64,000 bases of DNA from Calditrichota bacterium (GTDB lineage: Bacteria; Electryoneota; AABM5-125-24; Hatepunaeales; Hatepunaeaceae). Under the pieces are notes generated by a model. The model saw only the letters and a list, made by a program, of their open reading frames with translations. It was not told the origin of the DNA and did not search any database. The translations under genes and the position numbers were made by a program. The first letter of the stretch is position 1. Every line of letters starts with the position of its first letter. Positions 22,040 through 59,059 of the stretch are shown one piece after another. The DNA lies in NCBI GenBank assembly GCA_018644935.1, contig JABGPL010000003.1:19639-83638 (forward strand), given 5' to 3'.

Positions 22040-22098
22040 AGGGGTTGAATGTTTTCAACCCCTGTCCGCTGTGTTGTTGGCCTGAATATATTCAGGCC
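22040..22098. repeat. double-hairpin REP-like module, copy 2
   Basis: AGGGGTTGAA-TGTT-TTCAACCCCT, then GTCCGCTGTGTTGTT, then GGCCTGAA-TATA-TTCAGGCC (the stem extends to GTGTTGTTGG.../...CCAACAACA). Confidence 0.75.
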
Positions 22099-54828: not shown

Positions 54829-55572
54829 ATGGCACTAAAAGACAGAGTAGTCCTTGTCACCGGGGCGGGGCGAGGCATTGGTGCAACAACAGCAAAGATG
54901 TTCGCCGAAGCTGGAGCAAAGGTCGTATGTGCTGACATTAATGTTGATTTCGTTGATGAAGTAGTAGAAGAACTGAAAACCTCTGATCTGAAGGCGAGCG
55001 CAGCTCAGGTTGATGTAGCACATAAGGATCAGGTTGCCACTTTGGTCGGACAGATCCTGAAAAAATATGACAGGCTCGATATCCTCATCAATAATGCCGG
55101 GATAACTCGAGATGCATTGGCGATGAAGATGAGCGAGGAACATTGGGATTCTGTCGTTCAGGTTAACCTGAAGGGAACCTGGATTCCCTGTCAGGCGGTA
55201 ATTCGTCCCATGCGCAAGAACCGCTGGGGTCGCATCATTAATACTGCTTCGATTGCTGCACGGGGAAACCCCGGGCAAGCAAACTATTCAGCAACCAAAG
55301 GGGCAGTAATCTCCCTGACACGCACATTGGCACTCGAGCTTGCAACTTCAGGAATCACAGTCAACTGCGTAGCACCGGGCGCAATAATGACCCCAATGCT
55401 GGAAAAAGTCCCGGAAAAGACCCGGGAAGTGTTCATAAACCGAATCCCGGTAAAACGATTCGGGACTCCGGAAGACATAGCCAGCACCCACCTCTTCCTA
55501 TGCAGCGAAGGTGCAGCATATATAACAGGTCAGGTAATTCCGGTAGACGGTGGGATGAGTATCGGAATGTAG
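54829..55572 (+). CDS. fabG: 3-oxoacyl-[ACP] reductase / SDR family oxidoreductase
   Basis: VTGAGRGIG, NNAG, and YSATKGAV (YxxxK). 247 aa. Confidence 0.85.
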   Translation: MALKDRVVLVTGAGRGIGATTAKMFAEAGAKVVCADINVDFVDEVVEELKTSDLKASAAQVDVAHKDQVATLVGQILKKYDRLDILINNAGITRDALAMKMSEEHWDSVVQVNLKGTWIPCQAVIRPMRKNRWGRIINTASIAARGNPGQANYSATKGAVISLTRTLALELATSGITVNCVAPGAIMTPMLEKVPEKTREVFINRIPVKRFGTPEDIASTHLFLCSEGAAYITGQVIPVDGGMSIGM

Positions 55573-55616
55573 GTGGAGAGAAGTATTGTAGGGAACAAAT
55601 TATCGAAATAACGACG

Positions 55617-55919
55617 AACCGTAGGGGCACGTCGCCACGTGCCCTTCACCCTAACAAACCAAAATTAGAACAATTCGGAAAACCAACATCAGACTCAATA
55701 CCAACTATAATCAGGCTGTTCAAATCGGCATGTACTTTACAAATAAATGCATTTCGCAATATGCCTCGTTTTCCCGTTTGGCAAAGAGGATATTATGAAC
55801 ATGTGATTCGAGACGAAAGGGAATTAGAGAAAACCAGAGAATATATTGTGAATAATCCCCTAAAATGGGATTTGGATCGGTTTAATCCGGATAAAATTTC
55901 ACATCCAAACAAGAGGTGA
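55617..55919 (+). pseudogene. 5'-truncated RAYT / IS200-like (Y1) transposase remnant
   Basis: The frame of track ORF 55500-55919 encodes EQFGKPTSDSIPTIIRLFKSACTLQINAFRNMPRFPVWQRGYYEHVIRDERELEKTREYIVNNPLKWDLD. This is the conserved C-terminal part of REP-associated tyrosine transposase-like proteins. The N-terminal HUH-motif half is absent, and the upstream part of the ORF merely overlaps the fabG 3' end out of frame. Confidence 0.65.
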
Positions 55920-55967: not shown

Positions 55968-56816
55968 TTAGCATTTCCCCCTTTTTTCCAAATCCTTCGC
56001 CTCATCCCAAAATACATCCATCTCTTCCAATGTTGCTTCGTCAGTTGTTCTTCCTGTTTCGGCTAATCTTTTTTCGATGTGTTTGAATCTGCGGATGAAT
56101 TTTTCGTTGGCTCCTGTCAGGGCTACTTCGGGGCAATGCTTTACGTATCGGGCGACATTAACTACGACAAAAAGTAAATCACCCAACTCTTCACCGATTT
56201 TTTCGGGATCACCAATCTCAATTGCTTCTTTTAACTCGGCTAACTCTTCATCAACCTTCTCCATAGCACCGTCTATCTCTGGCCATTCAAATCCGACACG
56301 AGCGACCTTTTCCTGGATTTTTCTTGCTCGGACAAGTGCTGGCATTGACATCGGGATTGCATCGAGGCTGTGTTTTTCTTTGCCTTCAGTTCCCTTGGCG
56401 TCGTTCCAGCTTTTCAGGGCTTCTTCCTGATTATTCGCAACTCGCTCGCCGAAGACGTGCTGGTGACGACGTATCAGTTTATCAGCAAGGTCAGAAGCAA
56501 CATCTCCAAGATCAAAAGCACTTCTCTCAGCTGCAATTTCGGCATGGAATATCACCTGCATAAACAGATCACCGAGCTCTTCACGCATTAAATTGTCATC
56601 AGCTAATTTAACGGTGTCGATAAACTCATAGGATTCTTCAAGGAGGTTTTTGAGCAGTGATTCATGTGTCTGCACTTTATCCCAGGGACATCCCCCCGGA
56701 GCACGCAATTGCGACATGATACGAATCACAGTTGATATCTTTTCAAGCATCCCCTCTGGGAGCTCGAATTTGTTTTTCAGGTTGTCAATTATCTGTTGTT
56801 TTGTTTTTGTTAGCAA
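55968..56816 (-). CDS. mazG: nucleoside triphosphate pyrophosphohydrolase MazG
   Basis: GGCPWDKVQTHESL...EESYEF...EELGDLFMQVIFHAEIA...RRHQHVFG, plus a second MazG repeat EELGDLLFVVVNVARY. Confidence 0.9.
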   Translation of the reverse strand: MLTKTKQQIIDNLKNKFELPEGMLEKISTVIRIMSQLRAPGGCPWDKVQTHESLLKNLLEESYEFIDTVKLADDNLMREELGDLFMQVIFHAEIAAERSAFDLGDVASDLADKLIRRHQHVFGERVANNQEEALKSWNDAKGTEGKEKHSLDAIPMSMPALVRARKIQEKVARVGFEWPEIDGAMEKVDEELAELKEAIEIGDPEKIGEELGDLLFVVVNVARYVKHCPEVALTGANEKFIRRFKHIEKRLAETGRTTDEATLEEMDVFWDEAKDLEKRGKC

Positions 56817-56974
56817 AGTTGTCTCGTGTCAAATTTGTTGAAAAGCCAAGCATGCTGGCTTTAGTCGATGAAGGACGGAGTTTCGTAACAGCATTAAAGA
56901 ATATAAAGAAAAGCCCTACCATCTTGCAAAGCGGCAGGGATAAAAGACAACGAAAACAAATGGGATACTTATCC

Positions 56975-57424
56975 TTAGTTATTCTTTTCTTCTTTTAGAA
57001 GTTTTTTCTGCTTTTTCTTGAGAAGTTCAATTATGTTGACAACTGGTAGAAAATATGGTCCTTGTGGAAATAATCCTGTTGCTTGAGCAATGATTCCCCT
57101 GGCAGACCCATACAAGTTAGCTAAACAAAGTGAAGGAACATAACTCCTAAGTTCTTCTTCTTCCAAAGTATCCGGGAATGAAATTTCAGCAGAAACTTTA
57201 ATACTGATAAAATCAATCATTATTTCTTTATTTCGAGGAGGTTTATAAGTAATATTTAGGGTTATAACAAATTCGTTATGATTGTCATGTTTAGCAACAA
57301 AAAAGTCTATATCAATATCTTCAGGATATTCTTTTTCTTTATCCTGATTAAAAGGTTTTTCAAGTGGTATTACCTTAATCTCCCAAACCCAAATTCTTTT
57401 TAGAGTCATATCAAGATTCAACAA
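56975..57424 (-). CDS. SecB-like chaperone (third gene of a TAC module)
   Basis: 149-aa ORF. The order LKRIWVWEIKV.., DIDIDFFVAKHDNHNEFVITLNITYKP.., ISIKVSAEISF...YVPSLCLANLYGSARGIIAQATGLFPQGPYFLPVVNIIELL parallels E. coli SecB (FQIQRIYTKDISFE / YEVVLRVTVTA / [36 protein letters not shown]). TTG 57424 overlaps hicB by 7 nt. ATG 57409 is an alternative start. Confidence 0.6.
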   Translation of the reverse strand: MLNLDMTLKRIWVWEIKVIPLEKPFNQDKEKEYPEDIDIDFFVAKHDNHNEFVITLNITYKPPRNKEIMIDFISIKVSAEISFPDTLEEEELRSYVPSLCLANLYGSARGIIAQATGLFPQGPYFLPVVNIIELLKKKQKKLLKEEKNN

Positions 57425-57951
57425 CTTAAGTTACCTCTGTTGGATTTTGGTATTATTGACCATTTATCATCACTTCTTTTCTGTGAATTATATAACATCA
57501 CTGGCGAATCTTGATTCGCCAGTGATTGGGGTAGCATCAAGTAATTCGAGCTTGTAACTTCTAAAATTCGATGCAGAAGTTCATCTTCGGTTGAACGTCG
57601 GGTTAGCAATTCATTGCAATAAGAATTAAGACTGACGCCTTCCTCCTTAGCTTGTTTTGCCAATTGAGCATGTAGCCCAGATGAAGTTCTTAGAACAAAT
57701 TGACCGCTATATTTCTTTACATCCTCATCTTCATCACTTGGCATCGGGATAGGCATGTTTTTTTCAAACAGATATTCAAATGTTGCTTTTCGTGCTTCAT
57801 TAAGTTCATCAATCGCTTCTTCAAGCGTTTCACCAAATCCAAACACAGAACCACTGCCTAAATCAGGATGCCAAACCCAAAACCCTCCTTCTTTCTCAAT
57901 GAAGGTTGTTGGGTATTTTAAATCCAGATAGTATTGAATTTCGTGTTTCAT
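57418..57951 (-). CDS. hicB: HicB-family antitoxin with RHH-like DNA-binding segment and extended C-terminal tail
   Basis: N-terminal HicB fold pattern YPTTFIEKEGGFWVWHPDLGSGSVFGFGETLEEAIDELNEA. The RHH-type segment is SGQFVLRTSSGLHAQLAKQAKEEGVSLNSYCNELL. About 55 extra residues follow it. Confidence 0.75.
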   Translation of the reverse strand: MKHEIQYYLDLKYPTTFIEKEGGFWVWHPDLGSGSVFGFGETLEEAIDELNEARKATFEYLFEKNMPIPMPSDEDEDVKKYSGQFVLRTSSGLHAQLAKQAKEEGVSLNSYCNELLTRRSTEDELLHRILEVTSSNYLMLPQSLANQDSPVMLYNSQKRSDDKWSIIPKSNRGNLSC

Positions 57952-57961
57952 AGTACTCCCT

Positions 57962-58270
57962 CTAAATGAGTTTGTTGAACTCTAAATATGTAATCGCGTT
58001 GCAAATCTTGTTCAAATAGATGCCCTTAACCATCCTTTTGTCTTTTCCTCCTGTAGAAACGGGAATGGTAATTCTGCCATCTCGAAACTGTAGATTTGTG
58101 TGTAAATCCGGGTGCAGAGCTATCCAATGTGATCCTCTCGGGCTTGGTTCAACCGTAAATCCAATTGATTCAAGCATTTTCTTAATATCTTTGAATTCAA
58201 CTGTAGGTGGTGTTTTACCTTTCGAGCAAAGTTTATCACGTAGTTTTACAAAACATTTTGGACGGCTCAT
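57962..58270 (-). CDS. hicA: HicA-like mRNA interferase toxin
   Basis: 102-aa ORF. FKDIKKMLESIGFTVEPSPRGSHWIALHPD...ITIPVS...VKGIYLNKI fits the HicA dsRBD-like pattern, with a conserved GSH histidine. AAGGGAG lies 4 nt upstream of the ATG. Confidence 0.7.
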   Translation of the reverse strand: MSRPKCFVKLRDKLCSKGKTPPTVEFKDIKKMLESIGFTVEPSPRGSHWIALHPDLHTNLQFRDGRITIPVSTGGKDKRMVKGIYLNKICNAITYLEFNKLI

Positions 58271-58290
58271 ATTCTCCCTTATTTTGATTA

Positions 58291-58329
58291 CATAGTACTA
58301 AATATAGTACTATGATCAGAATATTGCAA
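58291..58329 (-). promoter_or_regulatory. candidate hicA promoter (TTGCAA-17-TATATT) overlapping a perfect 10-bp palindromic operator
   Basis: CATAGTACTA-AATA-TAGTACTATG lies at 58291-58314. On the minus strand, TTGCAA (58329-58324), a 17-nt spacer and TATATT (58306-58301) place the -10 box inside the palindrome, 20-45 nt upstream of the hicA ATG. Confidence 0.5.
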
Positions 58330-58398
58330 CTTCAGATGGGTTTATATTCAAGAACTGATATTTATGACACAAATTAGATGTGACCTTTCTCACATTAG

Positions 58399-58471
58399 AG
58401 CCACCGACTGGAATCGAACCAGCGACCTGATCATTACGAATGACCTGCTCTACCGACTGAGCTACGGTGGC
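58399..58471 (-). tRNA. tRNA-Thr (anticodon CGU)
   Basis: The reverse complement folds as a cloverleaf: acceptor GCCACCG/CGGTGGC, D stem GCTC/GAGC, anticodon stem GGTCA/TGATC with loop TTCGTAA (anticodon CGT), T stem GCTGG/CCAGT with loop TTCGATT. 73 nt, with no encoded CCA. Confidence 0.9.
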
Positions 58472-58585
58472 TTGATAGAAAATACTCTCAAAAAAGAGTA
58501 ATCCTAAATATATCCGTCAGGGAAATGGAATGTCAATGAAATTGTAGATTGATTTGGGCTGATCCCAATTTCAGTTGCGACAATT

Positions 58586-59059
58586 CTATTCATTACCGTG
58601 GAGTTTGGATTGTACATGCAGCGTGTCGACAGCTCGATCCAGACCTTCGATCTTAAAGCGAGCTGTTATCAGAGCAATTCCCTCTTTTCTGGCTACGAAT
58701 GTAACTTGTTCCCTAAAACCAGCTGGATCAGCTGGATTTGTAAATGCTCCCAGATTTGGAGAAATGCTTCCAACAGAATCGGGTTGAACATAAAAGATGA
58801 CCTTCTCACCTGAAAGTTTGTTTCCATCCCGATCTGTGAGCTCACCAGCAAACTGAACGCTCTCTCCAACAAACATTTCTGGAGCAACGTTATTGTGGAG
58901 ACTAATGTTCAGAGTATATGCTGGTCGTGTAACCGGTGGATCTGTGACCCCATCATCACAAGCATCGCAGCCAATTATTAGCATGATCCCACAAATCGTA
59001 GTAAAAAAAATCTGAGCTAATCGTTGAGTTTTTTTAATCCTCATGATGCTTCTCCTCAA
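58586..59059 (-). CDS. lipoprotein with Ig-like domain
   Basis: Signal peptide plus lipobox MLIIGC. The remainder (VGESVQFAGELTDRDGNKLSGEKVIFYV...VTFVARKEGIALITARF) looks like a bacterial Ig-like (Big) domain. Confidence 0.55.
   Translation of the reverse strand: MRRSIMRIKKTQRLAQIFFTTICGIMLIIGCDACDDGVTDPPVTRPAYTLNISLHNNVAPEMFVGESVQFAGELTDRDGNKLSGEKVIFYVQPDSVGSISPNLGAFTNPADPAGFREQVTFVARKEGIALITARFKIEGLDRAVDTLHVQSKLHGNE

Follow-up and report, generated by a model that had tools for sequence, protein, structure and literature searches.

Three adjacent genes in a 64-kb stretch of one contig of a Calditrichota metagenome-assembled genome (hereafter the window) most probably form a type II toxin-antitoxin-chaperone (TAC) cassette of the HicAB class, seated on a low-GC islet. 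All three genes lie on the minus strand and point the same way: a divergent hicA-like toxin gene encoding 102 aa (57962-58270), hicB encoding 177 aa (57418-57951) and a gene for a SecB-like chaperone of the SecB-TA type (56975-57424). The first two are separated by 10 nt. The last two overlap by 7 nt if the chaperone is read from TTG 57424 (149 aa), or are separated by 8 nt if it is read from ATG 57409 (144 aa). This spacing agrees with the open reading frame (ORF) coordinates in an earlier note on this DNA, which had proposed the module and whose reading of it is upheld as far as homology and architecture go. The tightly linked, co-directional order toxin, antitoxin, SecB-like chaperone is that of a TAC operon, with one promoter-like site upstream of the three genes and one terminator-like hairpin after them. 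TACs of the HicAB type have been described before, and the window locus is a further example of this established type, with the known architecture, a somewhat longer antitoxin tail and a more divergent toxin. By analogy with tested systems we infer toxicity of the first product, chaperone addiction through the antitoxin tail and autorepression through a palindrome in front of the operon.

We examined the product of the third gene by profile, homologue and structure searches. Direct searches gave no match in Pfam and, by phmmer against PDB sequences, nothing even at an E value of 10. A word-index homologue search returned only the protein itself, and the match to the NCBIfam SecB model was weak (E 0.01). 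Because the direct Pfam search was silent, the SecB identity of the gene had to come from a family profile or from structure. An exhaustive HMMER search collected 226 homologues, the best with ~40% identity, and 48 of 96 aligned family sequences matched the Pfam SecB model PF02556 (best E 5.5e-12). When the family profile was searched against the PDB, it recovered only H. influenzae and E. coli SecB, aligned from end to end. Likewise, the product matched the PADLOC model PD-T4-9_C with an E value of 1.5e-9; PD-T4-9 is the former name of CmdTAC, in which component C is a SecB-like chaperone (PMC9519451; PMC11618068).

The alignment-based AlphaFold2 model of the protein (pLDDT 93.3, pTM 0.85) displays four strands and two helices (beta1-4, alpha1, alpha2). 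In a Foldseek search its top 19 PDB neighbours were all SecB or the M. tuberculosis chaperone Rv1957 with its chaperone-addiction (ChAD) peptide, at E ~1e-6 and with TM-scores of 0.64-0.74. A model built from the single sequence gave the same Foldseek ranking at lower confidence. Together, the profiles and the models predict that the third product is a SecB-fold chaperone of the kind associated with toxin-antitoxin (TA) systems. The earlier note's description of the gene as SecB-like, and its expectation of a SecB fold, are thus supported by the family profile, the PF02556 matches of the homologues and the structure search; the SecB-family profile match it had asked for was obtained through the family and its homologues, but not from Pfam directly. 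Public gene calls start the gene at ATG 57409. TTG 57424 is preceded at 9 nt by GAGG, and ATG 57409 has no Shine-Dalgarno-like motif ahead of it. The TTG start is mildly favoured over the ATG because homologues carry about five residues before the position aligned to M6.

By its sequence, the second gene is a true HicB. The protein matches the HicB family PF05534 with 47 bits, above the curated cut-off of 21 (E 2.4e-12), and this match covers the C-terminal ribbon-helix-helix (RHH) region. The predicted RHH DNA-binding domain (residues ~75-118; 57598-57729, minus strand) also gives weak matches to the Arc and FitA RHH families of Pfam at residues 84-118, and the protein has PHROG matches to HicB-like and Arc-like repressors. 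For the predicted N-terminal toxin-binding domain (residues ~1-73; 57733-57951, minus strand), residues 23-78 match PF15919 below threshold (23 bits against a cut-off of 27, E 9e-5), and residues 11-73 match the HicB sequences of PDB entries 6u0i and 6hpb weakly, by sequence only (E 4e-4 to 6e-4). The HicB fold followed by an RHH segment, as described in the earlier note, therefore stands for the PF05534 part, which passes the cut-off, but its N-terminal half is backed by sub-threshold and weak matches.

Beyond the RHH domain, HicB continues into a C-terminal extension (residues 125-177; 57421-57579, minus strand). We compared the protein with six database HicB homologues from two-component systems (116-129 aa), which share 37-45% identity with it over 64-73% coverage. 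These homologues end at about residue 118-125 of the window HicB, at or just past the RHH domain, leaving a tail of ~52-59 extra residues, from ~119-125 to 177. The tail has no counterpart in any of the six, and is present in the HicBs that are linked to SecB-like genes at three other loci (L004, L023 and L028). The earlier note's claim that ordinary HicBs lack this ~55-aa tail, for which it quoted residues 126-177, was thus confirmed. The aromatic residues Y137, Y154 and W164 of the tail lie in short hydrophobic patches, and all the SecB-linked HicB tails carry scattered aromatic residues. Aromatic and hydrophobic motifs are a published feature of ChADs (preprint 10.1101/2024.02.24.581848; PMC5105189). 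By analogy, the C-terminal extension is a putative ChAD segment.

The first gene encodes a predicted divergent HicA-like toxin. Its match to the Pfam HicA_toxin family (PF07927) reaches 23.5 bits (E 6e-5, profile positions 1-40 of 58) and stays under the cut-off of 27, so that the protein is not a PF07927 member at the curated threshold; it also matches phrog_353, described as 'toxin', at E 5.7e-5. BLASTP aligns residues 24-52 with a Pfam-annotated HicA that stands beside a two-component HicB (L021; E 3e-5), and in this alignment RGSHWIAL pairs with GGSSHITF, taking in the Gly-Ser-His motif (G46-S47-H48). The HicA pattern of the earlier note is therefore upheld at the histidine, which aligns with that of an annotated HicA, whereas all profile matches are sub-threshold. 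Further HicA-like homologues lie upstream of long HicBs at L004 (partial) and L023 (111 aa; 18.7 bits and E 0.0019 against Pfam HicA). The histidine of G-x-H is invariant in the three TAC-linked proteins (window, L004 and L023), which have in common the motif G[ST]H-x-[IV]A-x-HPDL...G-x-I-[TV]-I and an insertion of ~10 residues; the usual P-x-H is missing in two of them (window and L004). A word-index homologue search with the first product found only one copy, 99% identical, and a profile built from the three sequences gave only chance matches to WD40 and coatomer proteins in the PDB.

Upstream of hicA, the sequence CATAGTACTA-TATT-TAGTACTATG at 58291-58314 (unstranded) is a perfect inverted repeat with 10-bp arms around a 4-bp spacer. 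It ends 20 nt short of the hicA ATG, and we regard it as a putative HicB operator. It can also be read as CA-TAGTACTA-TATT-TAGTACTA-TG, that is, as two 8-bp palindromes placed 12 bp apart, centre to centre. The self-complementary octamer TAGTACTA has only these two copies in the window, and the core TACTA-N4-TAGTA occurs once, against an expectation of 0.02. A sigma-70-like promoter candidate overlaps the palindrome on the minus strand (58301-58329): TTGCAA at 58329-58324 and TATATT at 58306-58301 are 17 nt apart and score 9/12, with the TATATT hexamer at the dyad of the palindrome.

Evidence that these elements matter comes from an independent module at L023/L024, whose HicB is 37% identical to that of the window. 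There, the hicA-like ATG is preceded at 23 nt by a perfect 10-4-10 inverted repeat, GCTGATACTA-CATT-TAGTATCAGC. Besides L023/L024, the only fetched locus with TACTA-N4-TAGTA is L015, which belongs to the same species as the window. When the hicA upstream regions of the window and L023 are aligned without gaps, GTTGC-17-TAyATT is kept. The conservation of position and core in an independent module indicates that both the palindrome and the promoter overlapping it are probably functional, and the conserved palindrome fits the known repression by HicB proteins through palindromic operators (PMC10865869). The perfect palindrome of the earlier note was thereby confirmed as an exact 10-4-10 repeat that recurs elsewhere; as for the promoter it had proposed, the site exists and its geometry is kept in L023. 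Within the module, a copy of the right operator arm with 11 of 12 positions matching (AGTACTATGAAA vs AGTACTATGTAA) lies at 57946-57957, over the ribosome-binding site and start codon of hicB. With one mismatch at most allowed, the estimated expectation for such a copy within the module is ~0.1-0.2; an additional HicB half-site and a chance resemblance are both conceivable.

We surveyed the gene context of 14 chaperone relatives with 30-48% identity; a locus search from a 5-sequence chaperone alignment gave three genome loci and five metagenome loci. An antitoxin-type gene stands directly ahead of the chaperone relative in all 14 cases, often overlapping it. Three of these relatives follow long-tailed HicBs (L004, 173 aa; L023/L024, 183 aa; L028, partial), ten follow XRE/helix-turn-helix (HTH) antitoxins of the HigA type (139-172 aa where complete), most of which have a Gp49/HigB-type toxin gene ahead of the antitoxin, and in the last case the preceding genes encode a DUF4258 toxin and a 213-aa protein. 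Because all 14 directly follow an antitoxin-type gene, the chaperone clade is dedicated to TA systems and has been combined with several TA families, in agreement with Sala et al. 2013 (PMC3581621). At the last-named locus (L027, 1090-2504), the chaperone relative (P0053) comes after a gene of the DUF4258 toxin family and the 213-aa protein, which has no Pfam match and a long C-terminal region. Possibly this is a TAC whose TA family is none of HigBA, MqsRA and HicAB. Some HigBA-type relatives have prophage or defence-island surroundings, which sets them apart from the window locus with its housekeeping neighbours: L014 (1938-4198) adjoins phage portal and Mu-F/ADP-ribosyltransferase genes, and L011 (157-5386) has beside it a second TA pair, HigB-like, and a restriction-modification gene of the Eco57I type.

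HicAB was one of the three TA families first reported beside SecB-like genes (PMC3581621), and the system most like the window locus has been studied directly. Bordes et al. 2016 validated the HicA-HicB-SecB-TA system of Methylomonas methanica MC09 (Metme_2813/2812 and the chaperone), mapped its ChAD to HicB residues 119-159 and swapped it with other ChADs; a supplementary figure of the same study includes two more long HicBs of 160-162 aa (PMC5105189). The remark in the earlier note that few of the SecB-like genes beside other TA families, HicAB among them, had been tested thus understated prior work. The two systems have the same three-gene order, the HicAB family and a SecB-like chaperone gene downstream. 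In both, the RHH domain of HicB is followed by an extension, ~40 aa in M. methanica (residues 119-159 of 159) and, compared by published description, longer in the window (~52-59 aa, from ~119-125 of 177). The hosts differ in phylum, M. methanica being a gammaproteobacterium, and the window HicA belongs to a divergent, longer subfamily (102 aa) below the Pfam cut-off.

The M. tuberculosis HigB1-HigA1-SecB-TA system (Rv1955-1957) likewise pairs a tailed antitoxin with a dedicated SecB. The window chaperone model superposes on 5MTW, the M. tuberculosis chaperone with its ChAD peptide (Foldseek E ~1e-6, TM 0.53-0.62), although the two chaperones are only 16-18% identical, and that system is a HigBA with an XRE-HTH antitoxin, whereas the window encodes a HicAB with an RHH antitoxin. 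In E. coli, HigBAC and CmdTAC are antiphage systems whose SecB-like chaperone recognises gpV or the capsid protein (preprint 10.1101/2024.02.24.581848; PMC11618068). The window chaperone resembles that of CmdTAC in its PADLOC match, and its nearest metagenomic relatives are mostly found in Gp49/HigB-HTH-SecB operons like that of HigBAC. In contrast to both, the window toxin is HicA-like, and neither a CmdT ADP-ribosyltransferase nor a HigB RNase. We rejected an identity with CmdTAC, as only the chaperone matches, and the first and second genes have no match to PD-T4-9 A or B. Two-component hicAB loci (E. coli, B. pseudomallei, S. pneumoniae) resemble the window locus in the hicA-hicB order, in a HicB built from an N-terminal domain and a DNA-binding domain at the C-terminus, and in a promoter that contains a palindromic operator (PMC10865869). 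Two-component HicBs, however, are 116-129 aa long and end directly behind the RHH domain, and no chaperone gene follows.

From these comparisons the following mechanism can be proposed. HicA would act as a small RNase toxin using the histidine of Gly-Ser-His, as its sub-threshold homology suggests, and the N-terminal domain of HicB would bind and block it. The RHH domain of HicB is expected to bind the two TAGTACTA sites straddling the -10 hexamer, which are conserved in the independent module, and to repress the operon. The tail of ~52-59 residues would serve as a chaperone-addiction segment that leaves HicB prone to aggregation or degradation, unless a SecB-like tetramer made from the third gene holds the tail by its aromatic and hydrophobic patches; for this step the tested systems of M. 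tuberculosis (HigBA1-SecB-TA) and M. methanica (HicAB-SecB-TA) serve as our analogues. Should the chaperone be titrated by unfolded clients or by phage structural proteins, HicB would be lost and, as E. coli HigBAC and CmdTAC suggest, HicA would cleave mRNA, resulting in growth stop or aborted infection.

Several observations weigh against this reading. Gene 1 has no match in NCBIfam, PADLOC or PDB sequences, and it reads P-V-S where the aligned Pfam-annotated HicA reads P-R-H. Since this motif is replaced and the Pfam cut-off is missed, the activity of the protein could be altered or lost. The SecB-linked HicB tails can barely be aligned with one another, and their homology therefore rests on position and composition; this poor alignment matches the published finding that ChADs share no significant sequence similarity with one another (PMC5105189). 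As for the promoter, promoter-like hexamers are not enriched in the region (8 against 6.1 +/- 2.3 in shuffles), which tempers the earlier claim, and the site was scored as sigma-70, while Calditrichota promoter rules may differ. In addition, five other contigs of the same species are 100% identical over the three genes and the operator, and identical copies within a species give no variation from which selection could be judged.

The same evidence bears on other explanations of the locus. The third gene might encode a general export or holdase chaperone that merely lies beside a two-component hicAB, the HicB tail being unrelated to it. Its family profile does align end to end with export SecB, no second SecB-like ORF was found in the 64 kb, the portion of the genome checked, and SecB-TA chaperones can replace E. 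coli SecB, so that the two roles are not exclusive (PMC5105189, Supplementary Fig. 5d). However, the antitoxin-type gene immediately before every surveyed relative, the CmdTAC chaperone model as best PADLOC match, the long tail on 4/4 SecB-linked HicBs (window included) and 0/6 two-component homologues, and a start codon that overlaps or abuts the hicB stop codon all make such a chance neighbourhood very improbable. Furthermore, SecB is mainly proteobacterial, and its sporadic copies elsewhere often belong to TAC or antitoxin-chaperone (AC) operons (PMC3581621). Toxin-less AC pairs of this sort exist, with L003 among the chaperone relatives (PMC3581621), and the cassette could likewise have decayed or been domesticated, with a HicA-like protein that is no longer a toxin and a HicB and chaperone kept as a regulator-chaperone pair. 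The HicA score below the Pfam cut-off and the lack of NCBIfam, PDB or other-homologue support are in line with such decay. Yet the three ORFs are intact with ribosome-binding sites, among them a Shine-Dalgarno-like GGGAG ahead of both the hicA and the hicB ATG, the histidine of the GSH motif is retained, and two unrelated contigs also pair long HicBs with this HicA-like subfamily and its motif, which speaks for purifying selection; we consider a decayed cassette unlikely.

A third alternative keeps the whole mechanism and narrows the role to abortive-infection phage defence, the chaperone sensing a phage structural protein instead of serving general stress response or addiction. The antiphage activity of E. 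coli HigBAC and CmdTAC (preprint 10.1101/2024.02.24.581848; PMC11618068), the PD-T4-9_C match of the chaperone, the case made from HicA contexts for a defence function (PMC10865869), the position on a low-GC islet next to a tRNA gene, and the phage and restriction-modification neighbours of L014 and L011 are all consistent with it. At the window itself, in contrast, the immediate neighbours are housekeeping genes (MazG, SDR, Opp permease) with no defence island, and tblastn of the chaperone against phage and plasmid collections found no homologue. By analogy, a phage-defence role at this locus is possible, with a substantial chance that falls short of even.

The region that encodes the HicB tail contains a further structure. 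On the minus-strand RNA at 57497-57526, at about HicB residues PQSLANQDSPVM, a perfect 14-nt inverted repeat, AAUCACUGGCGAAUC-AA-GAUUCGCCAGUGAU, can fold into a hairpin (13-bp stem, 4-nt loop); for the region, dG is -26.4 kcal/mol (z -4.6), and no U-run follows the stem. We rejected its assignment as a repeated element resembling repetitive extragenic palindromes (REP) or miniature inverted-repeat transposable elements (MITE), as no other copy was found in the window, and also as a conserved feature of TAC operons, as it is missing in seven related operons. The hairpin might influence how the mRNA is processed or how stable it is, or might cause pausing before the chaperone gene is reached. 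A more far-reaching proposal is that the TAC-linked HicA-like proteins of the window, L004 and L023 are a distinct toxin subfamily whose evolution has been coupled to that of long-tailed HicBs, of a fixed TACTA-N4-TAGTA operator and of a sensor of the SecB type. In this lineage, the hairpin in the ChAD region would tune the ratio of chaperone to antitoxin and so set the threshold at which a switch that senses phage or stress is triggered. We regard this as speculative and rather unlikely as a whole.

Calditrichota belongs to the Fibrobacterota-Chlorobiota-Bacteroidota (FCB) superphylum, and in the searched literature we found no characterised TAC from this lineage, as the earlier note had stated. 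The locus extends the HicAB branch of chaperone-addicted TA systems to a phylum with little experimental genetics, and offers a candidate in which sensing by a chaperone could be examined beyond Proteobacteria and Actinobacteria; what is understood of TAC systems today is not altered by it. For comparative work it adds three more long-tailed HicBs linked to SecB, a subfamily of divergent HicA-like proteins and an arrangement of operator and promoter that is conserved; this small set could help to define general features of ChAD tails and operators. There is value for annotation as well, in that standard pipelines name only HicB among the three proteins.

The operon probably ends at a terminator-like hairpin followed by a T-rich tail (56913-56932, minus strand), 43 nt past the stop codon of the chaperone gene. 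The module lies directly downstream of a tRNA-Thr(CGT) gene on the same strand (58398-58471), between mazG and an Opp-type permease/small lipoprotein-like ORF. The tRNA is the sole real match in an Rfam scan of 56700-58700. Because a stronger sigma-70-like site (58536-58507, 11/12) precedes the tRNA, transcription read-through from it into hicA is possible. The GC content across the module (low-GC stretch 56750-58500) is 31-39%, below the ~42-47% of the flanks, which suggests that the module was horizontally acquired. No integrase was found near the islet. Around the module, direct repeats of the tRNA-Thr 3' end resembling att sites were not convincing, and therefore we claim no integration boundary.

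Two observations concern the rest of the window. An ORF on the plus strand at 55500-55919 overlaps the end of the SDR gene with its N-terminal part and has no Pfam match at E 0.001; its C-terminus (...WQRGYYEHVIRDERELEKTREYIVNNPLKWDL...) resembles REP-associated or IS200-like tyrosine transposases, and the ORF is possibly a truncated remnant. In addition, about ten more loci carry perfect inverted repeats of at least 10 bp with spacers of at most 10 nt (8369, 9943, 17286, 22040-22079, 39866, 44278, 53260, 60556 and 63599). Window-wide, perfect inverted repeats give 36 overlapping matches, against a mean of 0.67 in block shuffles, and these further loci are probably terminators or REP-like elements.

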